Source: an uncultured Acidobacteriota bacterium | Lineage (GTDB): Bacteria; Acidobacteriota; Vicinamibacteria; Vicinamibacterales; Fen-181 | Reading direction: 5' to 3' | DNA: 64,000 bases | NCBI GenBank assembly: GCA_963727765.1 | Contig: CAVSGZ010000013.1 | Coordinates: 88,491 to 152,490 of the forward strand | The notes under the pieces: model-generated | What the model was told of the DNA's origin: nothing | What the model saw: the letters and a program-made list of their open reading frames with translations, nothing else | The model's database searches: none | Position numbers and translations under genes: made by a program | Shown: piece by piece, positions 6,414 to 50,544 of the stretch | How positions within the stretch are numbered: the first letter of the stretch is position 1 | Layout of the letters: each line of letters opens with the position of its first letter

Positions 6414-7580
6414 ATGACATTTCCGCTCATTCGCCGATCGCTCGGCCTGCTGCTTCTCGCGCTCGCGCTGCCCGCCGCCGCGGCGGCCCAGGGCCAGACG
6501 GCCTGGATGGACATCGCCAAGACACCACCCATGGGGTGGAACAGTTGGAACAAATTCGCCTGCAACGTGAGCGAGAGCCTCATCCGCGAGGTCGCCGACG
6601 CGATGGTCTCCTCCGGCATGAAGGACGCCGGCTACCAGTACATCGTCATCGACGACTGCTGGCAGGTTGGCCGCGACAAGAACGGCAACATCGTCCCCGA
6701 CCCGGATCGGTTCAAGGGCGGCATGAAGGCGCTCGCCGACTACGTCCACTCGAAGGGGCTGAAGTTCGGCCTCTACTCGGACGCCGGCGCGAGGACGTGC
6801 GAGGGCCGTCCCGGCAGCAACGGCTTCGAGGTCGAGGACGCGCGCCAGTACGCGGCCTGGGGCGTGGACTACCTCAAGTTCGACTGGTGCAGCAGCGACG
6901 GCGTCGATCCGAAGATCGCCTACCCGACCATGCGCGATGCGCTGAGAGCGACCGGCCGCCCAATCCTGTTCAGCATGTGCGAGTGGGGCACGAGCAAACC
7001 GTGGACCTGGTCGCGCGGCGTGGCGCACATCTGGCGGACGACCGGGGACATCTCGGACCGCTGGAACAGCTTCACGCGTTTGCTCGACCTGCAGGTCGGC
7101 CTCGAGAAATACGCCGGCCCCGGCGGGTGGAACGACCCCGACATGCTGGAGGTCGGCAACGGCGGGATGACCATCCCCGAGTACCGCGCGCACTTCAGCC
7201 TGTGGTGCCTGCTCTCCGCCCCGCTCATCGCGGGCAACGACATCCGCAGCATGACACCCGACATCCGCGACATCCTGACCAACAAGGAGGTCATTGCCGT
7301 CGACCAGGACCCGCTGCAGCAGGGGCGGCGAATCCGCAAGGACGGCGACCTCGAGGTGTGGGTGAAGAACCTCGCCGGCGAGGCCCGCGTGGTCGTCCTG
7401 CTCAACCGGGGCAGAACCGAGGCCCCGATGGCGGTGTCGTGGCAGGAGCTGGGCCTGCCGTTCGATGCCGAGCTGAAGGTGCGCGACCTGTGGGCGAAAA
7501 AGGACCTGGGCGCGGTGAAGGGTACGTTCTCGATGAGCGTGCCGAGCCACGACGTAGTGATGATCAAGGTGGCCAGATAA
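6414..7580 (+). CDS. Alpha-galactosidase, glycoside hydrolase family 27 (secreted)
   Basis: Signal peptide 'MTFPLIRRSLGLLLLALALPAAAAAQ', then the GH27 signature 'PPMGWNSWNKFACNV...YQYIVIDDCWQ...GLKFGLYSDAG...YLKFDWC'. An alternative upstream start exists at 6381. Confidence 0.88.
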   Translation: MTFPLIRRSLGLLLLALALPAAAAAQGQTAWMDIAKTPPMGWNSWNKFACNVSESLIREVADAMVSSGMKDAGYQYIVIDDCWQVGRDKNGNIVPDPDRFKGGMKALADYVHSKGLKFGLYSDAGARTCEGRPGSNGFEVEDARQYAAWGVDYLKFDWCSSDGVDPKIAYPTMRDALRATGRPILFSMCEWGTSKPWTWSRGVAHIWRTTGDISDRWNSFTRLLDLQVGLEKYAGPGGWNDPDMLEVGNGGMTIPEYRAHFSLWCLLSAPLIAGNDIRSMTPDIRDILTNKEVIAVDQDPLQQGRRIRKDGDLEVWVKNLAGEARVVVLLNRGRTEAPMAVSWQELGLPFDAELKVRDLWAKKDLGAVKGTFSMSVPSHDVVMIKVAR

Positions 7581-7602
7581 ACACGTTGTCTCGAGGTGCC
7601 GT

Positions 7603-10219
7603 ATGCGTCGTTTCCTGACTGTCTGCACGATCGTCTGCGCCGCGGGCACGTTGTTCGTCCACGCGCAGCAGCCCGTAGCCAAGGAACCGGCGGCGAAGCC
7701 CGCCGCTCAGGCCAAGGCAGCGCCCGCGAAACCCGCTCCATTCACGCTGTCGATTGACAGCATCATGAGCGGCGCCAAGCTGGTGGGCAACGCGCCCACC
7801 GGCGTGCGCTTCCTTCCCGACTCGTCGAAGATCGTCTTCTCCTGGCAGAAGCCGGGCGAGGACCGCGCCAACACCCACGTCGTCAACCGCGACGGGACCG
7901 GCCTCAAGCAACTCTCGGCCGAGGAAGCGCGCCAGCTTCCGGCCACGCCGACCGGCCGCCTCGACCGCGCGCGGAAGCGCCTGCTGGTCGCCGAAGGCGG
8001 CAACATCGTCATCTACGACGTCACGACCAACGCGCGGCGGCAACTGATGAAGACGGCCGCCATCGAGTCGAATCCGCGATGGGCGCGCGGCGACACGGCG
8101 GTGACCTTCATCCGCGACGGCAACCTGTTCCTGATGACGCTCGACGGCTCGGCGGCGGGGCCCGCCGAAGTGCAGCTCACCGACGTCGCGGCGGCAGCCG
8201 GTGAGGGCGGCCGCCACGGGGGTCGGACGCGGCGCCATCGGCGGAACCGGCCAGCGGGGCGGACAGGTGGCCGGCGCGCGTGGCGGAAGCGACCAGGGCC
8301 AGGCAACCGAGTCGCAGCGCGTGCTTCGGCAGGAGGAGATGGCCCTCATCGAGCACCTCAAGCGGCAGGCTGAGCAGCGTCAACGCGGCGGGGGCGGAGG
8401 AGGGGGTGGACGCGGCGGGCGCGGCGGCTTCGGGATGATGGGCGGCGGCGCGCCGGCCGAACCGATCGCCCGCTTCACGCCCGGGCCGCGGCAGTCGGTC
8501 ACCGACATGCTGCTCTCCTCGGACGAGAAGTACGTCTTCATCGCGGTCACCGAGCGACCGGAGATCCCGGCGCGCAACCAGGACGTTCCGAACTACGTGA
8601 CCGAGTCGGCCTATCCCGAGATGATCAACGGCCGCTCCGACGTCGGCGACTCGCAGTCGCACCGCCTGCTCGCGGTCCTCGATCTCAAGGGCAACAAGAC
8701 ACTATGGGCGGACGCCTCTTCGTTCGCCGGCAGCGAGAAGCCGGCCAAGCAGGGCGAGGCAGCCAAGCCCAGGCTGGTCGACTGGAGCCTGCCCGAATGC
8801 TCCGACGACGGCAGCCGATGCCTCGCGTCGGTGAGGTCGCAGGACTACCACGACCGCTGGCTCGTCACGATCGACCCAGCAACGGGCAAGGCCGCGTCGC
8901 TCGACAACCTCCACGACGACGCCTGGATCCGCGAGGCGGCGGTGTCGACCGGCTCGGGCGGCGGCTTCGGCGGGGGGTTCGGCGGCGGTGCTTTCGGCGG
9001 AGGCGGCATCACGTGGCTTCCCGACAACAGGCGCGTCATTTACCTGGCCGAGCGCGACGGCTGGATGCACGCCTGGACGCTCGACGTGACCGCCGACAAG
9101 CCGGCGCCTAAGGCCCTGACGAGCGGCAAGTGGGAGATCTCGAGCGCGCGGCTGTCCAACGACCGCACGAAGGTGTACTTCACGGCAAGCGAGGTGCACC
9201 CGGGCGAGCACCACTTCTACACCATCCCGGTCGACGGCGGAGCGTTCACCCGCATCACCACGACGACCGGCGGCCACGAGGTCACCGTCTCGCCCGACGA
9301 GAAGACGCTGGTGGACCTGTTCTCCACCATCAACCGGCCGCCCGAGATCTTCGTGCTGCCGTTCGCGGCCGGCGCCAAGGCCACGCAGGTGACGACGACG
9401 CCGACGGCCGAGTACCTGGCGTTCAAGTGGATCGAGCCAAAGGTCATCACCTACAAGGCGCGCGACGGGCAGATGGTCTACGCGCGTCTCTACACGCCGG
9501 AGATGGTCGGCGCCAGACGTGACCCGCGGCACCCGGCGGTGCTGTTCATCCACGGCGCCGGCTACCTGCAGTACGCGCACAAGTACTGGTCGGGGACCTA
9601 CTTCCGCGAGCACATGTTCAACCATCTGCTGGCCTCGCGCGGCTACGTCGTCCTCGCGCCCGACTACCGGGCGAGCGCCGGCTACGGCCGCGACTGGCGC
9701 ACGGGGATCTACCAGCACATGGGCGGCAAGGACCTCGACGACGTCGTCGATGGCGCCAAGTTCCTGGTGGCGACCGAGAAGGTGGACCCGAAGCGGATCG
9801 GGATCTACGGCGGCAGCTACGGCGGCTTCATGACGCTGATGGCGCTATTCACGACGCCGGACGTGTTCGCGGCCGGGGCGGCCCTGCGGCCGGTCACCGA
9901 CTGGGCGCATTACAACGAGAGCTACACGGCGCCCATCCTCGGCCTGCCCCAGACCGACCTCGACGCCTACAAGCGCAGCTCGCCGATCTACTTCGCCGAG
10001 GGGCTCAAGAACCAGCTGCTCATCTGCCACGGGATGGTGGACACCAACGTGTTCTACCAGGACACGGTGAGGCTGATGCAGCGGCTGATCGAGCTGAGGA
10101 AGGAAACCTGGTCGGTGGCGCCCTACCCGGTGGAGGACCACAGCTTCACCGAGGAGACGAGCTGGGCGGACGAATACAAGAGGATCTTCAGGCTGTTCGA
10201 GGGTTACCTGAAGAAGTAG
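7603..10219 (+). pseudogene. S9 family serine peptidase (DPP IV/prolyl oligopeptidase-like), split over two frames as sequenced
   Basis: The signal peptide and propeller N-part lie in frame 1 (7603 to about 8200). The rest, including the alpha/beta-hydrolase part 'IYGGSYGGFMT', lies in frame 2 (to 10219). The frame switch falls somewhere in the Gly/Arg-rich stretch 8190-8290. Confidence 0.75.
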
Positions 10220-37062: not shown

Positions 37063-38134
37063 TCACGGCTTTCGCGTCACCACGACGTGCAGCGTCACCG
37101 TCCCATCGAGAAACTGCTTCAGGTTCAGCTCCCACATCCCATCCCGGAACGACGCCCCCGGCGCGACGATTGCCGCTTGGGGCGGGTACGGACGGCGAAA
37201 CCCACTCGACGGCTCCGGGAGGAGCACCCCCGCCGCCTCGCCGAGCGCGGCCCGGTAATCCAGTTGCCCATCCCCGCCGACGCCGGACCCGACCCACGAC
37301 AGCTGGCGATGGGCCCGCAGCGCCACCTCGACAAACCCGTCGTCACGGAGGCGGCCCAACACCGTGCCCGTGACCTCCAGGCGGAGGGGGCTGACCGCGA
37401 CGTCGCGTGCGCTCTGCTCCAGGGCCCATTCCATGGCATCGAAGCGGAAGGGGGTTTGCACGCCGGAGTGGGCCGTCAACTGTTGGTGTTCCCACCGGTG
37501 TCCCAGTCGGCCGTTGTACTCGAGCCAGAGGTCGTAGAGCAGGGTGGCCTGGGGTTGCGGGGCCGGGACGGCGTCCACCATCACCTGCAGCACCACGTTG
37601 GCGCAGACCGACGACGTCGGGTCCGGCAGATAGTCCAGGACCTGGTGCTGCCCGACGTCGAGCTGCACGGTGCGGCGGCCGACCGCTTCGTCGGTGACGG
37701 CACCGGCCCGCCATCGTCCTCGTGCCCAGGATACCGCGAGGGTGACACGACCGGCGGACGCCTCGACCACCTCGACCTCGACCCGCCATCGCACCGCCGC
37801 CTGGGTCGGTTCCGCGATACCCACCGCGGCCCTGCACAGGTTGCCGGTCAATTCCGTGCCCGCCGCGAGAAACCAGGTCCGTCGGTCGCCGGGGCCCATG
37901 GCGCTCTGCACCATCGTTTCGGTCGTCCCGGTCGCGCGGTCCGGGGGCGTGCCCAGCAGATTCGAGCCGGACGAGGACGCGGTCCAGCACCGGTGTGCTC
38001 GCCAGGCTTTCTTGGGGAGCGACCAGGTGAGGAGAGGCTGCGGGCCGGACAACGAGACCGACGGCGGCACAGACACCGACCACGGCGCCGCAGAGTCCGA
38101 CGAGGCTCCGACGAGAAATGGTCTGGCGCATCAC
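37063..38134 (-). pseudogene. Hypothetical secreted protein, third gene of the ECF sigma/anti-sigma operon (apparent frameshift after the signal peptide)
   Basis: A signal-peptide-like start 'M(M)RQTISRRSLVGLCGAVVGVCAAVGLVV' (38134/38131) is in one frame. The 337-aa beta-rich body (37063..38076) is in another, with the junction somewhere in 37960-38080. No known domain. Confidence 0.45.
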
Positions 38135-38137
38135 CCT

Positions 38138-38654
38138 CTACTCCGGACGCTGCACGAGACCGGCGGCCGTGTCCTCCCACCGGAGGAACCGCAGCCGGAG
38201 CTCGGATTCTCGGCGGCGCGCCCCGTTCCACACCAGCCGATCGCGGGGGGAGCGCGCTCGGAATGACCTCGGGCAGCGACCACGTGACCTCGACGGGGGC
38301 GGGTTGGAAGGGGACCGGTGGCCGCTCCACGGCGATGACCTCCGCGGGGCCCAGCAGCGTCCGCACGACGTACCCGGTCGTCGCGGACGCGAGGATCAGA
38401 CCTGCCGCCACCGCCGGCAGGACAAAGCGCGCCATGCGGTCGCGTCGATCCCGGCGACCGAGCAGCGTCTCCATCCGCGTGTAGAAGGCCTCGCTTGGTT
38501 CGACACGGTCCTCCCGTGCCAGGACACTGAGCGCGGCGAAGTCGGCCAGCGCGTCGGCCGCGCCCGGGTCGGCCAGTGCCTCGGCCAGCAGGGCGGGATT
38601 GACGCGCTCGCCATCGAACAAGGCGCTCAGCGCCTCGAGATGCTCCGGTCTCAT
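38138..38654 (-). pseudogene. Anti-sigma factor (single-pass membrane protein), probable frameshift in its C-terminal part
   Basis: The ATG at 38654 overlaps the sigma stop (ATGA). It has an N-terminal anti-sigma-like helix region and the TM segment 'FVLPAVAAGLILASATTGYVV'. After the G6 run (38245-38250) the listed frame becomes Arg/Gly-rich junk. A +1 frame instead reads the protein-like 'DRLVWNGARRRESELRLRFLRWEDTAAGLVQRPE*', ending at 38138. Confidence 0.55.
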
Positions 38655-39170
38655 GGGGTGCCGTCCTCTCCATGTCGCTTCAGGGTACTGCGGACCCGTC
38701 CGCCCAGCCACTCGCGGAGTTGGACCCGTACGCGAAAGAGCCGGGCCCGGACTCCGTCCTCGGTCAGTTCACTCAGCGCGGCAATCTCCGCGTAGGTGAG
38801 CCCCACCACCTCGCGCAGCAGGAAGACCTCGCGGTCCGTGGCGTGGAGGCGGTCCAACGCCTCGTGCAGGCTGAACGCCAGCACCTGGGTGGCGTCGCGG
38901 CCGACGGGGCCCACCGACACCTCCACGACGCGCCGCCCCGAGGCCTGGCGTTGTCGGTCGATGAGCAGACGACGGGCGATGCGAAACAGCCAGACCGTCT
39001 CCTGGCCGGCCCCTTGGCGCCGGGTACTGGCCGGCACGCCGACTCGCCCGGTAGAACACCTCCTGGACGAGGTCCTCGGCATCTTCGGGACGCCGGGTGT
39101 GCCGCAGGCAGTACCAGAACAGGGTGCGGTGATAGCGGTCGAATAGATCGGCCAGGAAGTGCTCAGTCAC
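38651..39170 (-). pseudogene. ECF (group IV) sigma-70 factor, copy A; 1-nt insertion relative to copy B
   Basis: GTG start at 39170. It is nucleotide-identical to copy B (42454-42932) except for GGG at 39022-39024 where B has GG at 42785-42786, which splits the ORF. The region 2 ('DLVQEVFYRA') and region 4 ('LTYAEIAALSELTEDGVRARLFRVRVQL') motifs are present. Confidence 0.8.
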
Positions 39171-39183
39171 AGCGTCTACCCAT

Positions 39184-39212
39184 AAGAACGAACCAGAGCG
39201 CGGAAAGTGTCA
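39184..39212 (+). promoter_or_regulatory. Bipartite motif AAGAACG-N12-GAAAGTGTCA (candidate ECF-type promoter toward the Cys-rich gene)
   Basis: Exact motif halves at 39184-39190 and 39203-39212. The same architecture occurs inverted at 39275-39303. It contains GAAC (-35-like) and GTC (-10-like) elements. Confidence 0.45.
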
Positions 39213-39274
39213 AACCCCCGGGAGGGTGGACTGCCAGAGTCCGATTTCGCGTCTGGCCTCGTCTCCGTCAGAGG

Positions 39275-39303
39275 TGACACTTTCGGCCTCCGCCAACGTT
39301 CTT
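39275..39303 (-). promoter_or_regulatory. Bipartite motif AAGAACG-N12-GAAAGTGTCA on the minus strand (candidate autoregulated promoter of the sigma operon)
   Basis: The plus strand reads TGACACTTTC-N12-CGTTCTT, so the same half-sites and spacing point toward the sigma gene. Confidence 0.45.
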
Positions 39304-39366
39304 GCAGTGTACACGGCTCTGCTAGGCGATGCCCGACCTCACGCAGCGGCTCAACTGGAGGATGGC

Positions 39367-39813
39367 ATGGTCGTCAGCATCGCCTTCCGCCTGCAACATG
39401 CCCCCCGAGCGTTTGCCGACTATGCCGGGCCGGCCACGGTGCTCTACTCGCGCTCGCGGCTGACGGTGGCCGTCAACGACTACGTGGGGTGGACCTTCGT
39501 GGTGGCGCCCGACGACAGCCTCCTCGGCGTGGATGACCTGGGGTACGCGCAGGCGGATGTCACCGGGTTGAGCGTCTTCTGGGGCTCGTTGGTGCACGAC
39601 ACGGCCGACGTCGTTTTCGAGCGCCTCGTGCGGGGCTCCTGCGCCGCCGGCGACGGAGACGGGTGCGCCGACTGTGAGTCCGGTGGGCTGGGCGAGTCCC
39701 AATGTACGGCGAGCTGCGCAGGGGGGGACTGCCAGGCCAAGTGCGCATCAGGGTTCCATGCGTGCTGCAAGTGCCCCCTGAGTTGTGCGTGTTGCGCGGA
39801 CATCGGGGGGTAG
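39367..39813 (+). CDS. Hypothetical protein with a Cys-free 89-aa N-domain and a 59-aa C-terminal tail containing 13 Cys (copy A)
   Basis: SD GGAGGA precedes the ATG at 39367. The tail reads 'GSCAAGDGDGCADCESGGLGESQCTASCAGGDCQAKCASGFHACCKCPLSCACCADIGG'. All 4 substitutions against copy B in the tail are third-position synonymous changes. Confidence 0.7.
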   Translation: MVVSIAFRLQHAPRAFADYAGPATVLYSRSRLTVAVNDYVGWTFVVAPDDSLLGVDDLGYAQADVTGLSVFWGSLVHDTADVVFERLVRGSCAAGDGDGCADCESGGLGESQCTASCAGGDCQAKCASGFHACCKCPLSCACCADIGG

Positions 39814-40326
39814 CGTCGTGATTGTCGTCAGGGCCAGAACGCGAAGGTCAGGTCGGCGCGCGAACGCTCTCTGACCTCGCCAACGCGTGAGGAGGATGTC
39901 GCCATGACCTCTGGTGGCCTTGTAGGAGTGGCGCTGCCCGGCCCGAGTAGACGATATAGACAACACGAAAACGTGGCGAAACGCACATCAAGATCGGCCG
40001 CCGTCGCCCGTCCCAGTCGCTGCTCGGCCTTGTCCTGAGATTCTCGTGCGCGTCGATATCGTACCAGCGCCCGGTGTGTGCCAGACGGTGCGTGTCCCGC
40101 TGCGGCCACCCAACGTGGAGGAGTGATGATGTCGTGCAGACCTCCGTGAGACCCGTGGCGTGCAGCCTCTTCACGCTGCTCCATTTGCGCCGCCGGGGAC
40201 GAAGAACCCAACAAAGAAGTGAGCGATGAAGAGCATGATCGGGCCTCTGTCTCTCGTTACTCGCACGGCCAAGTAAACCTGGACACGCGGCCATCGCTGT
40301 CCCGCGTTTCCCAAGGAGGTCGTACC

Positions 40327-41418
40327 ATGATCAGACTGAAGCAGCGACCGCTCAGGCAGAGGATAATCGCCATCGTCGCAGTTCTCGGCATCACGTTCAC
40401 CGGTATGCCCCCACTTCTTGGCGCGGAACGAAAAGGGCGGCTGGACGACCAGGGCGCGCTGACGCAGTTCCTTGAAGTTCTCAATCGACAGGGTGGCTTG
40501 TCAGGGAAGAACATCGCGGACGTGGTCGCGGGCCGGCCGAGAACTCCCGGGCGTGTTGTGACGATGGCCGACATTCAACGATTTCGTGAGAAGCTGCTTT
40601 CGGATCAGGCCAACGCAGATCCGACTGTAGTCCAGCGCGCGAGGCGGGCGCTCATGTGGCTCAGGCTCGCGACGGCGACCACGGCGGCCGACCGGCACGA
40701 TCTGATCCGACAGTTGCCCGTCACGATCACGGTTTCTGCACCGACGGACGGGCGAGCGGGATTTGTGGAGAACTTCGTCGTTCGCGGCAAGACGCGGTTT
40801 CGTCTGTTCATTCCGAATGCTGGCACGCACTCCACAGTCGAGAGGTCATCGGGGCCGTCCGTGCTCGACCAAGATCCGGTATGCTACGACGACTACCAGC
40901 AGGAGAGCCCCTGCGCCACTGAACAAGACCTCGAGGACGCGGCGATGGCGGCTGCCGAACTAGACGCCCAGATCGCTGAGGCTCAGGCGGAGATCGATGC
41001 GCTCGGCCCCGAGGAGGGCGAGCAGGATGGCACGACGCTGAACCACGGACCTTGTACGGCGCCCAGCTGCGCCGAGCAGGCCGGTAACGCGGCCATGGCC
41101 CTGCTTGCCGGGGCCGCAACCGTGGTAACTACAGAAGCATCCATCGTTGGGGCGGCAGTCGGGGGGGTCGTCGTTGCTTCCGGAGCCACGGTCGCTGGCT
41201 GGATGCTGAGCGTCTTTGCGGCCGGATTCGCGGTCGGTTACACTGCAGGGGCGTACATAGCCTGCCGTCAGCTGCTGTCGGGCTTCTTCGATCAGCCGTT
41301 CGATCTTCCCCTCGTGTACCAGTTCACGTCCTGGCCATTCTCGACAGCGTGGCGTGGAATCCACGTCACGCCGGCGCCTGGCGACTCGTCTGGATACGGG
41401 TCGCCGGGCGCACTCTGA
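40327..41418 (+). CDS. Hypothetical secreted protein with a Gly/Ala-rich hydrophobic C-terminal region (copy A)
   Basis: SD AAGGAGG precedes the ATG at 40327. Signal peptide 'MIRLKQRPLRQRIIAIVAVLGITFTG', motif 'CYDDYQQESPCATEQDLED', and the glycine-zipper-like 'GAAVGGVVVASGATVAGWMLSVFAAGFAVGYTAGAY'. It is a paralogue of 43846..44967. Confidence 0.65.
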   Translation: MIRLKQRPLRQRIIAIVAVLGITFTGMPPLLGAERKGRLDDQGALTQFLEVLNRQGGLSGKNIADVVAGRPRTPGRVVTMADIQRFREKLLSDQANADPTVVQRARRALMWLRLATATTAADRHDLIRQLPVTITVSAPTDGRAGFVENFVVRGKTRFRLFIPNAGTHSTVERSSGPSVLDQDPVCYDDYQQESPCATEQDLEDAAMAAAELDAQIAEAQAEIDALGPEEGEQDGTTLNHGPCTAPSCAEQAGNAAMALLAGAATVVTTEASIVGAAVGGVVVASGATVAGWMLSVFAAGFAVGYTAGAYIACRQLLSGFFDQPFDLPLVYQFTSWPFSTAWRGIHVTPAPGDSSGYGSPGAL

Positions 41419-41471
41419 TCGGTGTTTGGAAGTGTCGCTGGCCTCGCATGTCATTGCAGAAGAGGAGCCAT

Positions 41472-41903
41472 ATGTCATTCTCCATTGTCTTGGCGATCGT
41501 TGGCATGTTGGCGGTGCCGACCGGCTACATCGCGTCGCGTTCTGTTCACAGAAGAACGCAACGGCGGTCCGTGCTGATTCCGGGGATGCTCGTGTTGTTG
41601 ACGCTGTGGTTGGCGATCCCCGCTGATGCCGTCGCCTGGCGTCATGTGTTACTGGCCATGGTAGTTGCCCTCGCAGTGTTCAACATTGTGGCGGACCGGC
41701 ATGTGATTAGTTGGCGTCGGCCGGAGCAGGTGCTCTTCGTGGCGGCGGCAGTCGCCTTGGCCGCTTCGTACTACCTGACCGGCGTCTCGTCTGCGATACG
41801 GTTGGCGTTGAGTTGCGCGTCCCTGGTTCTGGCGCTATCGGCTGTTGCCCTCACCATCGCGACGATATATCGAGCAGCCAGGTCGCGACGAGCTTCCGCG
41901 TAG
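41472..41903 (+). CDS. Small polytopic membrane protein (about 5 TM), copy A
   Basis: SD GAGGAG precedes the ATG at 41472. The N-terminus 'MSFSIVL' parallels 'MSFWSIL' in copy B. There are five hydrophobic segments. An alternative ATG lies at 41448. Confidence 0.6.
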   Translation: MSFSIVLAIVGMLAVPTGYIASRSVHRRTQRRSVLIPGMLVLLTLWLAIPADAVAWRHVLLAMVVALAVFNIVADRHVISWRRPEQVLFVAAAVALAASYYLTGVSSAIRLALSCASLVLALSAVALTIATIYRAARSRRASA

Positions 41904-42299
41904 CGGTTGACGATGAATCGTGGGGACGAAAGTCGACAGAGGTCGCAGGCCATGTCGTGTGTCTATCGGAGGATCTGCGGACAGTCGGCGATCTCCGGTG
42001 GTGCCCGCGAGTCGCCTGGGCGGTCCCCTTGGTCGGTGAGGGGTCCGTCCGGCGACGGTCATCGTACGCCAGCACGCCGTGCCCTATTGCCAGTCGAGTC
42101 GACGTCACCTCCCGTTTGTCGGCCCGCCAACGGCTTCAGCGCCGACTGGCGGTCCAGGGGCACGTGACCGGCCAGCTTGTCCTCGCCCCCGTTCTACGCG
42201 GCAACCCTGCGAGGCAGTTCGGGGCAATCGGCGGCGCGATGAAGCGCGAGCCGAGTGCGATGAAGCGCAGTAGAGCGCGATAGAGCGCTATCTTTCCGT

Positions 42300-42356
42300 C
42301 GACTTAGAATCCTGGGTCCCTCACGGGACATGTGGGTTCGACCCCCACCCCCGGCA
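42300..42356 (+). pseudogene. 3' fragment of a type II tRNA (tRNA-Leu, anticodon TAG-like); no 5' half
   Basis: Anticodon loop CTTAGAA (42303-42309), long variable arm GTCCC-TCAC-GGGAC (42316-42329), T-arm GTGGG-TTCGACC-CCCAC (42332-42348), acceptor 3' strand CCCCGGC and discriminator A. The upstream sequence cannot form the anticodon, D or acceptor stems. Confidence 0.65.
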
Positions 42357-42932
42357 CTTCAGGCTCAGGGCCCGAGGCCCGCTCCTCGACATCGCTCGGG
42401 GTGCCATGAGCGAGCGCTCGAGTTCACCGCACGCGGGTCGAAGGGCAGGGGTTCGGACCCGTCCGCCCAGCCACTCGCGGAGTTGGACCCGTACGCGAAA
42501 GAGCCGGGCCCGGACTCCGTCCTCGGTCAGTTCACTCAGCGCGGCAATCTCCGCGTAGGTGAGCCCCACCACCTCGCGCAGCAGGAAGACCTCGCGGTCC
42601 GTGGCGTGGAGGCGGTCCAACGCCTCGTGCAGGCTGAACGCCAGCACCTGGGTGGCGTCGCGGCCGACGGGGCCCACCGACACCTCCACGACGCGCCGCC
42701 CCGAGGCCTGGCGTTGTCGGTCGATGAGCAGACGACGGGCGATGCGAAACAGCCAGACCGTCTCCTGGCCGGCCCCTTGGCGCCGGTACTGGCCGGCACG
42801 CCGACTCGCCCGGTAGAACACCTCCTGGACGAGGTCCTCGGCATCTTCGGGACGCCGGGTGTGCCGCAGGCAGTACCAGAACAGGGTGCGGTGATAGCGG
42901 TCGAATAGATCGGCCAGGAAGTGCTCAGTCAC
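42321..42932 (-). CDS. ECF sigma-70 factor, copy B (intact frame; altered C-terminal extension; no adjacent anti-sigma gene)
   Basis: 203-aa ORF identical to copy A through '...VQLREWLGGRVR'. It then reads through unique sequence and the tRNA fragment before stopping at 42321. Confidence 0.75.
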   Translation of the reverse strand: MTEHFLADLFDRYHRTLFWYCLRHTRRPEDAEDLVQEVFYRASRRAGQYRRQGAGQETVWLFRIARRLLIDRQRQASGRRVVEVSVGPVGRDATQVLAFSLHEALDRLHATDREVFLLREVVGLTYAEIAALSELTEDGVRARLFRVRVQLREWLGGRVRTPALRPACGELERSLMAPRAMSRSGPRALSLKCRGWGSNPHVP

Positions 42933-42945
42933 AGCGTCTACCCAT

Positions 42946-42974
42946 AAGAACGAACCAGAGCGCGGAAAGTGTCA
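42946..42974 (+). promoter_or_regulatory. AAGAACG-N12-GAAAGTGTCA motif, copy B (plus strand)
   Basis: Identical to 39184-39212. Confidence 0.45.
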
Positions 42975-43036
42975 AACCCCCGGGAGGGTGGACTGCCAGG
43001 GTCCGATTTCGCGTCTGGCCTCGTCTCCGTCAGAGG

Positions 43037-43065
43037 TGACACTTTCGGCCTCCGCCAACGTTCTT
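43037..43065 (-). promoter_or_regulatory. AAGAACG-N12-GAAAGTGTCA motif, copy B (minus strand)
   Basis: Identical to 39275-39303. Confidence 0.45.
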
Positions 43066-43157
43066 GCAGTGTACACGGCTCTGCTAGGCGATGCCCGACC
43101 TCACGCAACGGCTCGATTGGAGGATGGCATGGGACGAAACCGACCACCGTCGTCAGC

Positions 43158-43592
43158 GTGGCCTTCCGCCTGCAACATGCCCCCCGAGCGTTTGCCGACT
43201 ATGCCGGGCCGGCCACGGTGCTCTACTCGCGCTCGCGGCTGACGGTGGCCGTCAACGACTACGTGGGGTGGACCTTCGTGGTGGCGCCCGACGACAGCCT
43301 CCTCGGCGTGGATGACCTGGGGTACGCGCAGGCGGATGTCACCGGGTTGAGCGTCTTCTGGGGCTCGTTGGTGCACGACACGGCCGACGTCGTTTTCGAG
43401 CGCCTCGTGCGGGGCTCTTGCGCCGCGGGCGACGGAGACGGGTGCGCCGACTGTGAGTCCGGCGGGCTGGGCGAGTCCCAATGTACGGCGAGTTGCGCAG
43501 GGGGGGACTGCCAGGCCAAGTGCGCATCAGGGTTCCATGCGTGCTGCAAGTGCCCCCTGAGTTGTGCGTGTTGCGCGGACATCGGGGGGTAG
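43158..43592 (+). CDS. Cys-rich-tail protein, copy B (start uncertain because of the 17-nt insertion)
   Basis: Same protein as copy A from 'AFRLQH' onward. The SD-proximal ATG (43128) is now out of frame and opens a 37-codon ORF. The in-frame GTG at 43158 is the nearest candidate start. Confidence 0.55.
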   Translation: MAFRLQHAPRAFADYAGPATVLYSRSRLTVAVNDYVGWTFVVAPDDSLLGVDDLGYAQADVTGLSVFWGSLVHDTADVVFERLVRGSCAAGDGDGCADCESGGLGESQCTASCAGGDCQAKCASGFHACCKCPLSCACCADIGG

Positions 43593-43845
43593 CGTCGCCA
43601 TCGTCGGCGTCGTCCTACCGTCGGGCTTGGGTTAGGCCGTTCGTCACCCGCGGCGACCAGCCAACGTGAAGGAGTCACGATGTCGTGCAGGCCTCCGTGA
43701 GATCCGCGGTATGGAGCCTCTCGACGCTGCTCTATTTGCGCCACCGGGGACGAAGAAGCCAGCAAAGAAGTCGGCGGTGAAGAGCCTGATCGTTGCTGTC
43801 ACGTTATTCACGCGGGCAAGTGAGCATTTCGCCAGGGAGATTACT

Positions 43846-44967
43846 GTGCTACGCAAATTGCCGTGCCGGAATTTGTTGGCAGGTTTGATGACCGCCTCAG
43901 TGTTAGCTGCTTTGATGACCGCGTCAGTCTTCGCCAGGGGAACACCGCGCGCTGCACCAACCCAGACCTCGATTCAGGGCGGCGGTGGCGAGATTCTCGA
44001 GGTGTTCTCAAATGACGGCCGCTCCGTCCGGCGCCTTGAAGCCGCGCAGCTCTCGGCTGTTGTGAGCAAGGCCGCGACAAGAAAAGACGAGACAGGGAGC
44101 CGAGGTTCTCTGCTTGCCTCTCCGGAATTCGTCGCCAGCACGCGAGCTCGTATAAGACAAGTGCTGGCTATGCCGCTGAAGAACAGGAAAGCCGACTTCG
44201 CCTTGACGCTCGCCGTCCTTGATGCAATGTCGGCAGCCTCGGAGGCAGAAGCCCATCAGCTGCTCGCGAGGCTTCCGATTCGAGTCGAGCGCAAGGTCGG
44301 ACCAGCGACGGTAACGACGAGCGTGTACGTCCGGGGCAACATCAAGTTCCAGGCGATGACCCCACTGTCGGCGACAGACAGTGAGGGGACAGTGACGTCC
44401 GTGTCGCCCAATGATGCGAACTCGCCGGGCGCGACTGACGAGGTCAACGTGTACGCTCCGGTCGCGCCTTCCATTTCCCCCCAATCCGACTGCGAGATCA
44501 ACCCGGACGATCCCTGCGCAACGCAGCAGGACATAGATGATGTGTTGGCCGCAGAGGCTGCAATGCAGGTGGACTTAGACTCGGCGGCGGATGACTTCGC
44601 CGCGGATGAAGTCGCCTGCTATGCAGATGGTTGTTGCCAATACCTTCCAACGACGTCGGGCCCAGCCATAAGGACCCAAAGTTGTGGATGGAAGTATCTT
44701 GAAGCCGCAGGTGGTCTCGCGGTGGCAGCGGGTGCCATCACGGGCGCGGTTGCGGTTACAATCTCACCGGACCCGATTTCCAAACTGGCGCTCTTCAGCG
44801 CGTACGCGACCGCCGCAGGTGCAGTTGCCCTGGCCGTAGCGGGAGTTTACGACGCGTGGGCGGGTCATTATAACATTCTCGACGCGCCCGTAAGTTGGAC
44901 GGGTCTTCGCATTGACCGCCCAGAGTTCGTGCTGAAGCCCGTGTTCGTTGGGCCGATCGGGAGGTGA
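43846..44967 (+). CDS. Hypothetical secreted protein with a Gly/Ala-rich hydrophobic C-terminal region (copy B, diverged paralogue)
   Basis: SD AGGGAG precedes the GTG at 43846. Signal peptide 'LRKLPCRNLLAGLMTASVLAALMTASVFA'. Shared motifs with copy A include 'LARLPIRV', 'YVRGNIKF' and 'CEINPDDPCATQQDIDD', plus the hydrophobic 'AAGGLAVAAGAITGAVAV...ATAAGAVALAVAGVY'. Confidence 0.6.
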   Translation: MLRKLPCRNLLAGLMTASVLAALMTASVFARGTPRAAPTQTSIQGGGGEILEVFSNDGRSVRRLEAAQLSAVVSKAATRKDETGSRGSLLASPEFVASTRARIRQVLAMPLKNRKADFALTLAVLDAMSAASEAEAHQLLARLPIRVERKVGPATVTTSVYVRGNIKFQAMTPLSATDSEGTVTSVSPNDANSPGATDEVNVYAPVAPSISPQSDCEINPDDPCATQQDIDDVLAAEAAMQVDLDSAADDFAADEVACYADGCCQYLPTTSGPAIRTQSCGWKYLEAAGGLAVAAGAITGAVAVTISPDPISKLALFSAYATAAGAVALAVAGVYDAWAGHYNILDAPVSWTGLRIDRPEFVLKPVFVGPIGR

Positions 44968-44982
44968 AGATTGGTGAACAAC

Positions 44983-45249
44983 ATGTCGTTCTGGTCTATT
45001 CTGCCATGGGCAGTCCTCACGCTCGGTTTCTTGGTGACCATCCTGGCTTATGCGCGCTTCGAGGAGATCGGCAGGATGGTCGGAGCCGGCGCCGGCCTCA
45101 TCGTCTGCAGCGTGGTGTTTCTGGCCGGAATCAATGGTACGGCGCTGGGCGCCCTGCTGTTCACGGGAGGTGCCGTTCTTGTGGGCCTGTCCGGATACGT
45201 CTTCGGGCGTGAGCGCAGAAGACGGGGCAAGGACGGACCTCTGGCGTAA
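44983..45249 (+). CDS. Small polytopic membrane protein (about 3 TM), copy B
   Basis: The ATG at 44983 gives 'MSFWSIL', parallel to copy A. Alternative TTG (44971) and GTG (44974) starts lie closer to the GGAGG SD. There are three hydrophobic segments and a basic tail. Confidence 0.6.
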   Translation: MSFWSILPWAVLTLGFLVTILAYARFEEIGRMVGAGAGLIVCSVVFLAGINGTALGALLFTGGAVLVGLSGYVFGRERRRRGKDGPLA

Positions 45250-45290
45250 CCGTTTGAAGTACGGGGTGCGAGGCGCACCAGGTCGGGTAG

Positions 45291-45330
45291 GGGCTGGTAG
45301 GACAACCGAGGACTCCTTACCAGCCCTTTC
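45291..45330 (+). terminator. Hairpin with a short T-tract after cassette B
   Basis: GGGCTGGTA (45291-45299) pairs with TACCAGCCC (45318-45326) across an 18-nt loop, followed by TTTC. Confidence 0.35.
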
Positions 45331-45388
45331 AATCTCTGGAGCAATCGGCGACACGATGAAGCGCGTTGGGGCGCCTTGAGCCTTCTGT

Positions 45389-46213
45389 CTACGTCCCGGT
45401 CGCTGCCCCTCTGCTCCTGATCACGGCGGCAATGCGGCCCGTCCCTGGCCCGTCGCGTCGGTACGACGCAAACCATTCGGGGTGGCTGGCGGTGCACAGG
45501 CCGGACTGGTGAATCCTCTCCGGGGGGACGCCGCTCGCCATCAACTGGTCCCGGTTCGCTCTCCACAGGTCGAGACGAATCCGACCAGCGACATCGCGCG
45601 CGAACCAGGCCTCGATCTTGCGCGCGAACCCGGCAGCCCGAAACGCCTCGATCACTTCTTCGCCCACGACGTAGCAGCAGGGACCGATGCTCGGCCCCTG
45701 CGCCACGACCAGGTCTTCGGGGTCCGCGCCGAACTCGCCGGCGAGCGCCGCGACCGCGGCCGGAGCCGCACCCGCCGCCGTGCCCCGCCAGCCTGCATGG
45801 ACGGCCGCGACCGCCCCGCTCCGCCGGTCGGCGACGAGCAGCGGTACGCAGTCGGCCGCCTGCACCACCAGCGCCACCGTGGTGTCGTCGGTCACCAGGA
45901 TGTCGGCCTGCGGCCACGATGACTCAGACTCACCCACGCCGGGGAGGACGCCGGAGTTTTCCCCGTAGACCGCGCGCGGGCCGGCTCGATGCACCACCAC
46001 GCCGCGCCCGTGCACCTGGTTCAGCCTCAGCAGCCGGTTCGTGGAGACACCGATCGCGGTAGCGACGCTGGCCCAATCCGCGCGCTCGCTCTCGCCGCGC
46101 AACCAGAGTTGACGGGTTGTGAAGAAGTGGTCGGCCACCTCGGCAAGCGGCGCCGACTGCAGGGCGGTTCCACAGCCCTGCCTTGTCCAGGCGAATCCAT
46201 CGAGCAGCGTCAT
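45389..46213 (-). CDS. pgeF: PgeF/YfiH-family (DUF152) purine nucleoside phosphorylase / polyphenol-oxidase-like protein
   Basis: Contains 'NQVHG', 'ADCVPLL', 'HAGWRGT', 'IGPCCY' and 'CTASHPEWFASYRRDG'. The ATG at 46213 overlaps the acpS stop (ATGA). Confidence 0.85.
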   Translation of the reverse strand: MTLLDGFAWTRQGCGTALQSAPLAEVADHFFTTRQLWLRGESERADWASVATAIGVSTNRLLRLNQVHGRGVVVHRAGPRAVYGENSGVLPGVGESESSWPQADILVTDDTTVALVVQAADCVPLLVADRRSGAVAAVHAGWRGTAAGAAPAAVAALAGEFGADPEDLVVAQGPSIGPCCYVVGEEVIEAFRAAGFARKIEAWFARDVAGRIRLDLWRANRDQLMASGVPPERIHQSGLCTASHPEWFASYRRDGPGTGRIAAVIRSRGAATGT

Positions 46214-47372: not shown

Positions 47373-49091
47373 TTACTCGAGCTGGCCGGAGGCGCGGAAG
47401 GTCTGCTCCTCGCGGAGGCCGCGATCGAATTCCTTGCGGAGGAACCCGGGCCTGACGCCGCCCCCGACGATGTCCCAGGGTAGGACCAGGTCCTGACTGC
47501 GGTCCCTGAAGACGTACCAGTCGGGGTCGATGCCAGCCGCCGCCGCCGCGGCGCGCCACTGCCCGCCGTTGCGCTCGGCTTCTTCGATCACCGGGGCGAC
47601 GCGGCGGTCGCCAAGCGAGAGCAGGGCCTGGTAGAAGGAGTTTCGCTCGGACTTGATGGAGAAGTGGACGTTGTCGAGGCTGGCCACCAACTGGCGCAGG
47701 CGCCGCATCTTGCGTTCGGTGGCTTCCGGCGCCTCGATGGCCATCCACTGGTAAGCCGTTCCCGGCTTGGGGACGAGGGGGTTCACGCTGGCCACAATCC
47801 GGCCGACCGTGCCGCGGCCGCGGGCGTGCCGCAGCATCGTTTCCCGCAGTGAGACGGTCAGGTCCCGGATCGCCACCAGGTCGTCGTCGGTTTCGGTGGG
47901 CAGGCCGATCATGTAGTAGAGCTTCAGGTTCTCGATGCCCGAGGCGAACACGAGCTCGGCCCGGTCCAGGATCTGGGCGTTGGTGACCGTCTTGTTGATC
48001 ACGCGCCGGAGGCGATCCGACCCGGTCTCTGGCGCAATCGTGATCGAGCGCTCGCCGCTCTCGCGCAGGATGCGGACGATCGGTTCAGTGATGTCGTCGA
48101 GCCGGAGCGAGGCGGGGCTGATGTGATAGCCGAGTTCGAACAGCCGATTGAGAATCCGCTCGATCTCCGGGTGGTCACAGAGGGCGATCGACACCAGGCC
48201 CACGCGCGACGCGTGGGGCCGCGCAGCCTCGGCCAGGCGCAGGATGCGGTCCGCGTCGAACGACCGGACGGGCAGGTAGTTGTACCCGGCCCAGCAGAAG
48301 CGGCAGAGGTTGGCGCAACCGCGGACCACCTCCACCAGGAGGCGCGAGCCGAACTCGGTGTCCGGCGAGAACACCGTGGTGGCCGGCGGGTCGGCGAAGT
48401 CCGTGGCGCGGAGGGTCGCCTTCGGCACCGGCGTCAGCAGGCCGGAGCCCGCGACGGGTTCAAATGCCGCGATCCGCCCGTCCGGGTCGTAACGGACGTC
48501 GACGAGCGCCGGTACGTACATCCCAGGCTGTCCAGCGAGGCGCCGTTCGATCGCCGCGTGGCCGCCGCCGCCGACGGCCCCCTCGACGAGTGCCGGCACG
48601 AGCACTTCGCCTTCGCCCGCGCAGACGACATCGACGAACGGGGCGAGCGGCTCGGGATTCAGGAAGCTGGTGGCTCCGCCGAGAACGATGAGCGGGTGGC
48701 GGTCGTCACGGTCCGCCGCGCGGACCGGCAGGCCGGCAAGCCGCAGCATGGTCAGGACGTTGGGATAGTCCCACTCGAACGACACCGAGAAGGCGAGCAC
48801 GTCGAAGTCGGCGACGGCCGTCTGCGACTCGAGGGTGATGATCCGCACGCCTGTTCTGAGCGCCTCGGCCAGCTCTTGTTTGGGCGGCAGGAACACGCGT
48901 TCGCACACGACATCGTCGCGCTCGTTGAAGAGGCGATAGACGGTCTGGAAGCCGAGGTTCGACATGCCAACGAAGTAAGTGTTGGGGAACGCGAGCGCCA
49001 CGCGCAGGCGGTCGGTGTGCGGCTTGCGGATGCAGCCGACTTCGCGGGAGAGGATTTCCCGCGCCCGTTCGCGGTGTTCCCAGGAGCTCAT
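47373..49091 (-). CDS. B12-binding-domain radical SAM protein
   Basis: 572 aa with a cobalamin-binding-like N-domain and the CxxxCxxC motif 'RGCANLCRFCWAG'. Confidence 0.8.
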   Translation of the reverse strand: MSSWEHRERAREILSREVGCIRKPHTDRLRVALAFPNTYFVGMSNLGFQTVYRLFNERDDVVCERVFLPPKQELAEALRTGVRIITLESQTAVADFDVLAFSVSFEWDYPNVLTMLRLAGLPVRAADRDDRHPLIVLGGATSFLNPEPLAPFVDVVCAGEGEVLVPALVEGAVGGGGHAAIERRLAGQPGMYVPALVDVRYDPDGRIAAFEPVAGSGLLTPVPKATLRATDFADPPATTVFSPDTEFGSRLLVEVVRGCANLCRFCWAGYNYLPVRSFDADRILRLAEAARPHASRVGLVSIALCDHPEIERILNRLFELGYHISPASLRLDDITEPIVRILRESGERSITIAPETGSDRLRRVINKTVTNAQILDRAELVFASGIENLKLYYMIGLPTETDDDLVAIRDLTVSLRETMLRHARGRGTVGRIVASVNPLVPKPGTAYQWMAIEAPEATERKMRRLRQLVASLDNVHFSIKSERNSFYQALLSLGDRRVAPVIEEAERNGGQWRAAAAAAGIDPDWYVFRDRSQDLVLPWDIVGGGVRPGFLRKEFDRGLREEQTFRASGQLE

Positions 49092-49254: not shown

Positions 49255-50544
49255 CTACCCCTGCTGGCGGCGCAGGAACGCTGGCACGTCGAGCGGCGAC
49301 GCCTCGCCCACGTCGGCCCCTTCCTCGGGGGACGGCTCGGCTGGCGCGCCGTTCACCACCGCGCGGGCCTGCGCGGGCACCGAGATGACCGACCGGCGGC
49401 GGACCGGAATCGAGGGCGTCACCGAACCGGTTTCGGCCGCGGGTACGGTCTGACGGTGCCCGTCGTACCAGGCCTGGTAGCTTTCGATGGCGACTGGCGT
49501 GTCGGTGCTGGGCCGCACGCCCTTGCCCGGCCGCCCGTCGCCGAACCCGGTGGCGATGACCGTGATCTTCACCTTTTCGCCGAGGCTCGGATCGACGACG
49601 GCGCCGAAGATGATGTTGGCGTCCTCGTGGGCGGCCTTGTAGATCGTGTGAGACGCGTCGTTGACCTCGCCGATGCCGAGGCTGCATCCGCCGGTGATGT
49701 TGATGATGACCCCTCGCGCACCGTCCACGCACGCATCCTCGAGCAGCGGGCTCGACACCGCCATCTTCGCGGCCTCGACTGCCCGGTCCTTGCCCTCCGC
49801 GATGCCGGTGCCCATCACGGCGACCCCCATGCCGCTCATGATTGCTTTGATGTCGGCGAAGTCGAGGTTGATGATCCCAGGCACGAGGATGAGGTCGGAG
49901 ATTCCCTGGATGGCCTGGCGCAGCACGTCGTCGGCCGCCGCGAACGCGTCGAGCAGCGACTGGCTCCGATTGACCGCCAGGACCCGCTCGTTCGGGATGG
50001 TGATGACGCTGTCGACCGTCTGGCGCAGCTCGATCAGGCCCTGCTCGGCCTGGCGGTTGCGCCGGCCCCCTTCGAAGATGAACGGCTTGGTCACGACCGC
50101 GATCGTGAGCGCCCCAATCTCGCTGGCGAGGCTGGCCACGACCGGCGCCGCGCCGGTGCCCGTGCCGCCGCCCATCCCCGCCGTCACGAACACCATGTCC
50201 GCGTCGTCGAGCGCCTCGAGCAGCCGCTCGGTGTCCTCGAGCGCGGCAGCCCGGCCGACGGCGGGATCGGCGCCGGCGCCCAGCCCCTTGGTCAGCTTCT
50301 CGCCGAGCTGCACCTTGATCGGCGCGACGCTCTGCTGCAGCGCCTGCACGTCAGTGTTGGCGACGATGAACTCGACGCCGACGAAGCCGGTTCGCACCAT
50401 CCGGTTCACGGCGTTGCTCCCGCCGCCGCCGACGCCAATCACCTTGATCCGCGCGCCGAGCCGCCGCGGGTCCTCGCCGAATTGGATCCGCAGCGATTCG
50501 GTCAACGCGTCGCTGCCGGGGATCAGGTGCTGCACGTTCGCCAT
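49255..50544 (-). CDS. ftsZ: Cell division GTPase FtsZ
   Basis: '[17 protein letters not shown]', the '[11 protein letters not shown]' tubulin signature, and the C-terminal 'DVPAFLRRQ' peptide. Confidence 0.97.

Follow-up and report, generated by a model that had tools for sequence, protein, structure and literature searches.

A cysteine-rich open reading frame without signal peptide in an uncultured Acidobacteriota bacterium, probably a decaying allele of a secreted protein family linked to an ECF sigma factor cassette

Introduction

Cassettes of an extracytoplasmic function (ECF) sigma factor and its anti-sigma factor are already a known kind of regulatory unit, and RpoE-RseA-RseB is the one with which the locus described here is compared. 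To our knowledge, the ECF sigma groups of uncultured soil phyla are largely uncharacterised. For small cysteine-rich proteins, comparison extends to metallothioneins and Csp, to granulin- and EGF-like modules, and to precursors of ribosomally synthesised and post-translationally modified peptides (RiPPs), among which the NHLP and Nif11 types have a leader homologous to nitrile hydratase alpha or to Nif11 (NCBIfam leader models). Cysteines are tied directly to an ECF sigma factor in the CorE type (ECF238), where the cysteine-rich segment is a C-terminal extension of about 20 aa of the sigma factor itself and senses cytoplasmic metal (PMC7826278). The present study concerns a stretch of 64,000 nt from an uncultured Acidobacteriota bacterium (assembly GCA_963727765.1, contig CAVSGZ010000013.1, positions 88,491 to 152,490 of the forward strand), hereafter the window, and within it a 148-aa open reading frame (ORF; 39367–39813, plus strand) with a cysteine-rich tail, which lies divergently from an ECF sigma factor gene. 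A preliminary description, made from the letters of the window, had considered this ORF as a RiPP-like precursor or as a metal or redox module. The explanation preferred here, with a probability of about 0.6, is that the ORF is an export-dead allele, recently duplicated and probably in decay, of an uncharacterised, ECF-controlled secreted family.

Protein Family and Domain Architecture

The ORF, designated copy A, encodes a protein with no cysteine in residues 1–89 and with 13 cysteines and one histidine in the last 59 residues, exactly as the preliminary description had quoted it. The G+C content at the three codon positions of the plus frame was 0.65, 0.55, and 0.87, and the ratio of non-synonymous to synonymous substitution rates (dN/dS) against homologues was 0.23–0.34, so that the plus frame of 39367–39813 is the coding frame. 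These values, together with homologues that keep the cysteine spacing, bear out the earlier view of a constrained ORF of the translated type; judged by its composition and substitution pattern, it is a genuine coding sequence. Minus-strand ORFs overlapping the cysteine-rich gene were rejected as genes. N-terminal extensions from upstream GTG codons (39226 in copy A and 42969 in the second copy, copy B) were also rejected: they lie 5′ of the predicted promoter, their frames differ between the copies, and they align to non-coding DNA of the homologues.

A homology search returned one 153-aa protein with 99% identity and six relatives at 58–71% identity, of which three are full-length (203–211 aa), while those of 180 and 183 aa and a second one of 211 aa come from short contigs. 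Close family members matched the window ORF at E = 1e-45 to 1e-93. When 1.84 billion cluster representatives were searched with a profile, 80 matched at E < 1e-3, including 51 at E < 1e-10, and nearly all of them were 200–240 aa long; a further search with the 51-sequence profile, run on pre-selected candidates, added no members. One relative locus, found with the close-homologue alignment over GTDB species, belongs to a metagenome-assembled genome (MAG) of an uncultured Acidobacteriota. All members come from metagenomes or MAGs, and each one that has a name in its source is a "hypothetical protein". Neither the ORF nor any of the 51 aligned members matched Pfam at E ≤ 1, the NCBIfam scan of the ORF at E ≤ 1 yielded only an irrelevant SsaP match (E = 0.25), and the family profile gave chance matches only (E ≥ 0.13) against PDB sequences. 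One member, P0008, is a tandem fusion of two family copies.

The full-length members, of about 210 aa, consist of a signal peptide, a seven-stranded beta domain, one helix, and a C-terminal domain of ~55 aa with 12–13 cysteines. Their N-terminus has a basic n-region followed by a hydrophobic stretch, and a hydrophobic N-terminal signal-like segment was detected by a simple hydropathy test in 67 of 86 family proteins, the exceptions being mostly fragments. The statement in the preliminary description that there is no signal peptide therefore holds for the window ORF and fails as a property of the family, since the absence is a state derived by deletion and the full-length relatives have one. 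The AlphaFold2 (AF2) model of the full-length member P0006, built with the 51-sequence alignment, reached a predicted local distance difference test (pLDDT) score of 85.9 and a predicted template modelling (pTM) score of 0.82. It comprises a signal helix (residues 2–19), strands at 32–42, 48–55, 68–74, 82–91, 94–98, 104–109, and 125–136, a helix at 143–156, and four short strands in the cysteine-rich end (175–207); the N-terminal beta domain, which corresponds to the "leader" of the window ORF, was modelled at pLDDT > 90. Foldseek comparison of this model with the PDB gave no match at E < 0.05 (best E = 0.057, TM-score < 0.25), RseB being seventh in rank and not significant.

The cysteines follow the framework C-x7-C-x2-C-x2-GG-x-G-x3-C-x3-C-x4-C-x3-C-x2-G-x2-A-CC-x-C-x3-C-x-CC. 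In the 51-sequence alignment eight of them are invariant and two nearly so, i.e. 10 of 13, and the pattern is therefore not due to chance; conservation of the spacing across homologues, which the preliminary description had left to a survey, was found in the family. Conservation within the protein is highest in the cysteine tail. Cysteine loss was counted in 75 sequences that include the domain, the counts being of sequences and not of independent evolutionary events. All 22 sequences without C136 also lack C117, which is missing from 24; C100 and C143, missing from 7 and 8 sequences, are lost jointly in 6; C92, the thirteenth and odd cysteine, is lost in 19, often without loss of a partner. 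The column of the single histidine reads Y/H/F in the same set, and this residue is not conserved. The internal Gly-Gly pair is kept (G106 in 73 and G107 in 70 of the 75) inside an invariant CxxCxxGGxGxxxC framework, and the C-terminal pair is not conserved, so the Gly-Gly sites pointed out earlier are confirmed for the internal pair alone. The paired loss of cysteines, the export signal, and the beta-hairpin prediction together indicate a disulfide-knotted extracytoplasmic domain. Sequence and model would accordingly fit a family with an exported, disulfide-knotted C-terminal domain that is neither a RiPP core nor a metallothionein.

Metal storage of the metallothionein or Csp type, as considered in the preliminary description, is not borne out. 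There is no Pfam match and no sequence or fold match in the PDB, the P0006 model has beta-hairpins and not a helical bundle, the cysteines are lost in pairs, the histidine column is variable, and the family is exported. In sequence terms, the paired loss and the export signal favour disulfides over thiolate metal binding.

The RiPP interpretation supposes a precursor of the NHLP or Nif11 type with a long leader, Gly-Gly cleavage, and a core rich in Cys, Ser, and Thr, its modifying enzymes being encoded elsewhere. The window ORF does lack a signal peptide, its tail is Cys/Ser/Thr-rich with Gly-Gly motifs, and a radical-SAM gene is located 3.8 kb from copy B. However, no NHLP, Nif11, or other leader family matched at E ≤ 1, and the ancestral and prevalent form of the protein carries a Sec signal peptide. 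The supposed leader is a structured beta domain, the Gly-Gly pair is embedded in the invariant cysteine framework and not at a leader/core boundary, and the supposed core is the most conserved rather than a variable part. No LanM, YcaO, SPASM, or C39-ABC genes were found among the called genes of the homologous loci L001, L002, L005, L010, and L011, nor was any modifying enzyme or C39 transporter found around either window copy. The radical-SAM gene (47373–49091, minus strand) was rejected as a RiPP maturase: its product is of the B12-binding/Radical_SAM_N2 type, none is called in the homologue loci, and it adjoins ftsZ (49255–50544) in what looks like a housekeeping context. With no leader homology, an exported and folded N-domain, a conserved "core", and neither maturase nor C39 exporter nearby, a RiPP precursor is extremely improbable.

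Sigma Factor Cassette and Promoters

By gene order and homology, the cysteine-rich gene forms one side of a conserved cassette of four genes and lies divergently from a sigma factor operon. In L001, L002, L005, L010, and L011 it faces a minus-strand operon encoding an ECF sigma factor of ~170 aa, a second protein of 134–171 aa whose start overlaps the sigma stop, and a third protein of 318–355 aa where complete; in L010 the third gene, for the ~350-aa protein, is cut by the contig end. L004 and the contig of P0013 include the sigma gene and break off early in the gene that follows it, and a divergent sigma gene was seen in L007. The exceptions are P0080, the most distant member, and the truncated P0039 (L013, 1173–1700), which has no adjoining sigma gene; both lie in other contexts.

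In the window the operon consists, on the minus strand, of the sigma factor gene of copy A (38651–39170), an anti-sigma factor candidate (38138–38654), and the gene for a ~350-aa all-beta envelope protein, p350 (37063–38131). The sigma factor has regions 2 and 4 only (Sigma70_r2, E = 1.2e-13; Sigma70_r4_2, E = 5.8e-13; TIGR02937, E = 1.4e-21). The second protein, 171 aa in relatives, resembles a single-pass anti-sigma factor of the RseA_N kind: its gene overlaps the sigma gene by 4 nt, its N-terminus reads LSALFDGE, and it has one hydrophobic or transmembrane segment, with an RseA_N match that is weak both in the window (E = 0.036) and in L011. In the distant L010 the anti-sigma factor is 41% and the ~350-aa protein 30% identical. 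The AF2 model of p350 is all-beta (pLDDT 74, pTM 0.47). Its Foldseek search against the PDB returned 21 matches at E < 1e-3, every one a secretin (InvG, PilQ, GspD, and phage pIV among them), at a TM-score of only ~0.25; no Pfam match was obtained at E ≤ 10, neither Secretin nor MucB_RseB, and a PDB profile search contained no secretin. The secretin likeness of the modelled fold may be taken as a lead only.

Both divergent promoters of the cassette carry the motif TGACACTTT-N13-CGTTCT. The predicted ECF-type promoter of the cysteine-rich gene of copy A is TGACACTTTCGGCCTCCGCCAACGTTCT (39275–39302, plus strand; 43037–43064 in copy B), which places the predicted 5′ end of the transcript near 39309, and the predicted autoregulated promoter of the sigma operon is TGACACTTTCCGCGCTCTGGTTCGTTCT (39185–39212, minus strand; 42947–42974 in copy B). 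The motif occurs four times in the 64-kb window, each time exactly and only at the two divergent promoter pairs, whereas 0.53 occurrences are expected; a scan allowing three mismatches still gave four matches only. It is paired in L002–L005, and the second promoter of L001 has a degenerate version. In the distant L007 and L010 the −35 element TGACACTTT is kept on both sides, and the −10 element differs. The shared motif predicts, on sequence evidence only, that the sigma factor autoregulates and directly drives the cysteine-rich gene. The link to the divergent ECF sigma factor, which the preliminary description had suggested, is thus supported by divergent promoters sharing one motif in five close loci and its −35 element in two distant ones, and it is the most informative part of that description. 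For the window ORF, membership of the cysteine family and control by the sigma factor appear quite likely from these comparisons. The set of partners, namely an exported 13-Cys protein, a 350-aa all-beta protein, and the shared TGACACTTT promoter, is undescribed in Pfam, NCBIfam, the PDB, the reclassification of ECF sigma factors (PMC7826278), and the literature searched, which contained no description of the cysteine-rich family or of its four-gene cassette.

In an intact cassette, the anti-sigma factor would hold the sigma factor until an envelope signal arrives, possibly one read together with the 350-aa protein, and the freed sigma factor would transcribe its own operon and the cysteine-rich gene. 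The product of the latter would be exported by Sec, after which its cysteines would be oxidised to about six disulfides, and the knotted beta-hairpin domain would act in the envelope or outside the cell. The product of the window allele would not leave the cytoplasm, a reducing compartment, and its beta domain would be incomplete.

Duplication, 5′ Deletion, and Decay of the Window Copies

Self-comparison of the window revealed a 1.13-kb duplication, in which unit A (38691–39818) and unit B (42454–43597) are 97.6% identical. The segment spans the cysteine-rich ORF and the intergenic promoters together with the greater part of the sigma gene, and unit A ends 5 nt past the stop codon. In the tail the two copies differ at codons 91, 94, 106, and 116 (TCC/TCT, GCC/GCG, GGT/GGC, and AGC/AGT), all synonymous third-position changes and in full agreement with the preliminary description; the sole other coding difference is ATC/GTG (I5V). 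As their sequences indicate, the near-identical copies are the outcome of a recent 1.1-kb duplication or of gene conversion.

Two contigs from other samples, L003 (ERZ25039512) and L004 (ERZ19048064), are 98–99% identical to the window. When the DNA from the sigma gene to the ORF was aligned with L001 and L002, the promoters, Shine-Dalgarno sequence, and ATG were found to be conserved, and 172–189 nt were missing directly after the ATG. Copy A lacks 189 nt, corresponding to codons 2–64 of the full-length relatives, and its ATG is fused in frame to V65; its Shine-Dalgarno sequence GGAGG (39357–39361, plus strand) lies 5 nt 5′ of the ATG, a position kept in full-length homologues. L003 and L004 lack 174 nt and have a 15-nt junction that is in frame. 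Copy B (43129–43592, plus strand) lacks 172 nt, and its 17-nt junction (43132–43148) places the ATG at 43129 out of frame with the homologous coding part (43149–43592). This ATG leads into a 37-codon dead end, and 3′ of the predicted transcription start the only in-frame start codon is a GTG (43158), which is poorly placed at 27 nt from the Shine-Dalgarno sequence. Mapped on the P0006 model, the missing stretch covers the signal peptide and strands beta1–beta2 together with the loop after them, so any product would be cytoplasmic and its beta domain incomplete. A tblastn search of the window with the full-length protein recovered residues 63/65–211 only; the N-terminal 62 residues gave no match at all. 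The resemblance of this signal-less, cysteine-rich ORF to a RiPP precursor or a metallothionein arises because the deletion removed the export signal.

In the 5′ untranslated region of the cysteine-rich gene (39290–39355), eight substitutions were observed relative to the otherwise nearly identical L003 and L004, three of them common to copy B, which suggests that the copies underwent gene conversion in patches or that a hot spot of mutation lies by the deletion junction. Other truncated members were also seen. In L011 (5700–6483) the signal peptide and beta1–2 were lost through a deletion of separate origin; this allele retains all 13 cysteines and lies beside an apparently intact sigma/anti-sigma/349-aa operon. 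L005 contains a 110-aa, 5′-truncated second copy with the C-terminal part only (8769–9101), directly after the full-length gene.

The sigma, anti-sigma, and p350 genes of module A are each split over two frames. In the sigma gene one additional G is found (39022) that neither copy B nor L003 and L004 have. The anti-sigma gene is shifted by +1 near 38208, so that its product lacks the conserved C-terminal motif ELRLRFLRWED, and in p350 a frameshift near 37960 separates the N-terminal hydrophobic anchor from the beta domain. These single-base insertions (39022, ~38208, and ~37960) fall within 2.1 kb, and two A insertions create GAATC. Taken as sequence, they could represent real decay or basecalling errors. 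The sigma gene of copy B (42321–42932, minus strand) is a 203-aa ORF that is intact through region 4; residues 1–161 (42450–42932) show the family sigma homology and an unrelated tail follows, with neither an anti-sigma gene nor a p350 gene behind it.

The truncation and the frameshifts might both be assembly artefacts, in which case the real genome would carry a full-length secreted gene and an intact cassette. In keeping with this, the lesions in the sigma, anti-sigma, and p350 genes are single-base insertions in short runs, and the related contig L003 is visibly indel-rich. The large deletion, however, is present in four sequences from three assemblies, i.e. in both window copies as well as in L003 and L004, which derive from different samples and assemblers, and its junctions differ slightly; moreover, the missing N-terminal residues could not be traced by tblastn, and intact long ORFs are numerous in the rest of the window. 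Sequence comparison thus makes the 5′ deletion very probably real, and artefacts are a very unlikely source of the truncated gene and damaged cassette.

Export and two of the seven beta strands have been lost, and the disulfide domain would be left in the cytoplasm. Together with the unusable start of copy B, whose ATG is out of frame, and with the frameshifted genes for the sigma factor of copy A, the anti-sigma factor, and the 350-aa protein, this suggests that the cassette is most likely decaying. As to the present window copies, their sequences put the chance that they are non-functional slightly above even. Several observations weigh against regarding the copies as dead. The coding part of the window copies keeps the 13-Cys framework and every family-conserved residue. 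The non-synonymous divergence (dN) from the L005 outgroup is 0.32, compared with 0.35–0.39 for the full-length relatives, and shows no acceleration; synonymous changes between copies A and B number 4.5 and non-synonymous ones 1.5. The promoter, Shine-Dalgarno sequence, and ATG of copy A are intact, and the junction is in frame in two of three population variants. L003 carries many 1-nt indels, and the single-nucleotide frameshifts could be assembly errors. Finally, the signal-less 13-Cys allele of L011, located by an apparently intact operon, may mean that loss of the N-terminus is tolerated or even selected, and the 110-aa second copy in L005 counts on the same side. These signs of retained function are equally explained by a recent deletion combined with gene conversion.

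Alternatively, the truncated protein could be neofunctionalised in the cytoplasm, its 13 reduced cysteines serving as a thiol-rich metal or redox buffer or sensor switched on by the sigma factor of copy B. For such a role there are the intact start of copy A with all conserved residues, the unaccelerated dN and a dN/dS of ~0.12 between the copies, the in-frame junctions of copy A and of L003/L004, the independent loss of the signal peptide in L011 beside an intact cassette, and the copy B sigma factor, complete through region 4. However, two of the seven beta strands are deleted and the native fold of the N-domain is therefore unlikely, the cysteines are lost in pairs as in disulfides and the only histidine is not conserved, the ATG of copy B is unusable, and there is no similarity to metallothioneins, to Csp, or to any known redox sensor. 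With so few differences between the copies, statistical power is also low, and gene conversion may account for the pattern. A new cytoplasmic function is considered unlikely, if worth keeping in mind. Less likely still, the four-gene cassette might be a previously undescribed, self-contained, ECF-controlled export or signalling unit, with p350 as a secretin-like outer-membrane channel (or sensor) for the knotted protein, and the signal-less alleles (the window, L011, and the second copy of L005) might be functional variants under selection and not debris, e.g. proteins of the cytoplasm that antagonise or regulate the secreted form or confer immunity. The recently duplicated, export-dead allele remains the preferred explanation, and the window ORF itself is regarded as a damaged family member, probably a relic.

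Genomic Neighbourhood

Both cysteine-rich ORFs and two downstream gene pairs are contained in a stretch of lower G+C content (~39000–45500; 59–67% against 68–73% in the flanks), which sits between an RNase H/tRNA-Met region and a pgeF-acpS-rSAM-ftsZ region and may be an acquired island. The gene pairs, at 40327–41418 with 41349–41903 and at 43666–44967 with 44971–45249, are old paralogues, one downstream of each cysteine-rich ORF. Their large proteins (360–430 aa) are 23% identical between the pairs and have a hydrophobic N-terminal segment, conserved cysteine pairs, and a Gly/Ala-rich, hydrophobic C-terminus, while the second gene of each pair encodes a small multi-transmembrane protein. No Pfam or NCBIfam matches were obtained for either pair. 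Homologues also occur 3′ of the cysteine-rich gene in L005, and by analogy the layout resembles that of a membrane-active toxin with its immunity protein.

A conserved leader of ~150 nt is present at 40096–40241 and 43647–43792 and at ~9690–9860 of L005, upstream of the genes for the 399-aa, 433-aa, and L005 322-aa proteins. The window copies of this leader are 85% identical to each other and ~72% to that of L005, and both contain a Shine-Dalgarno sequence with a mini-ORF encoding MSCRPP followed by a stop codon. No Rfam match was found for it; it could be a translational or attenuation leader. The Rfam scan of 36.5–46.5 kb gave a single weak chance match (mir-718, E = 0.17), and scanning for terminators and sigma-70 promoters around the cysteine-rich ORFs yielded nothing useful.

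On the plus strand, 42296–42356 looks by eye like the 3′ part of a type-II tRNA: CTTAGAA resembles an anticodon loop, the variable arm is long, the T-arm GTGGG-TTCGACC-CCCAC is perfect, and CCCCGGCA would be an acceptor strand. The fragment is situated ~100 nt to the left of the junction of the duplication, and the copy B sigma ORF reads through it with its tail. ARAGORN did not call this fragment, a low threshold giving junk calls only; it may be the remnant of an integration site. Elsewhere in the window, the ORF of an S9 peptidase (8138–10219, plus strand) matches DPPIV_N only from profile position 126, and the overlapping upstream ORF in another frame (7564–8373) has no match; a housekeeping gene may here (7564–10219) be frameshifted or affected by an indel of the assembly.

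Significance

The analysis defines an unannotated protein family together with its conserved ECF sigma cassette and a readable promoter motif. A cassette with one obvious output, the exported 13-Cys protein with its predicted knot, is a tractable entry point, since sigma factor, promoter, and product can be rebuilt in a heterologous host. The window also offers a caution: a signal-less, cysteine-rich ORF may mimic a RiPP precursor or a metallothionein through deletion of its export signal.

Comparison with Known Systems

The cassette is similar in several respects to the envelope-stress cassettes of the RpoE-RseA-RseB type, which combine an ECF sigma factor with an RseA_N anti-sigma factor and a periplasmic partner: the sigma factor has Sigma70_r2 and Sigma70_r4_2 domains, the next gene overlaps it by 4 nt and encodes a protein with an RseA_N-like N-terminus and one transmembrane segment, the third gene encodes a predicted exported, beta-rich protein, and an ECF promoter (−35, 16-nt spacer, CGT-type −10) before the sigma gene implies autoregulation. 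It differs in that the third protein has no MucB_RseB match and a different predicted fold, and in that the only recognisable local target is the divergent secreted cysteine-rich protein, which has no counterpart in the RpoE system. Moreover, no DegS/RseP context was seen here, and the RseA_N match is weak.

The high cysteine density and the CC and CxC motifs are shared with bacterial metallothioneins (SmtA/BmtA and MymT) and Csp. Unlike these, the family is exported, has no Pfam or NCBIfam match, and is predicted to form beta-hairpins instead of a zinc-finger-like fold or a four-helix bundle; its histidine is not conserved, and the joint loss of cysteines indicates pairs. The likeness to NHLP/Nif11 precursors is superficial and concerns the window allele, with its long N-terminal part, Gly-Gly motifs, and Cys/Ser/Thr-rich C-terminus, whereas the family has no leader homology or processing genes, possesses a signal peptide, and conserves the "core".

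Granulin- and EGF-like modules are comparable in having about 12 cysteines per ~50 residues, and stacked beta-hairpins (predicted here), paired loss of cysteines, and Sec export are further points of likeness. The spacing here (C-x7-C-x2-C-x9-C-x3-C-x4-C-x3-C-x6-CC-x-C-x3-C-x-CC) is different, and the cysteine-rich family has no significant sequence or fold match in the PDB. With CorE-type ECF sigma factors the locus has in common a cysteine-rich sequence functionally coupled to an ECF sigma factor; here, however, the cysteine-rich part is a separate, exported protein, and the sigma factor is accompanied by a putative anti-sigma factor of conventional type.

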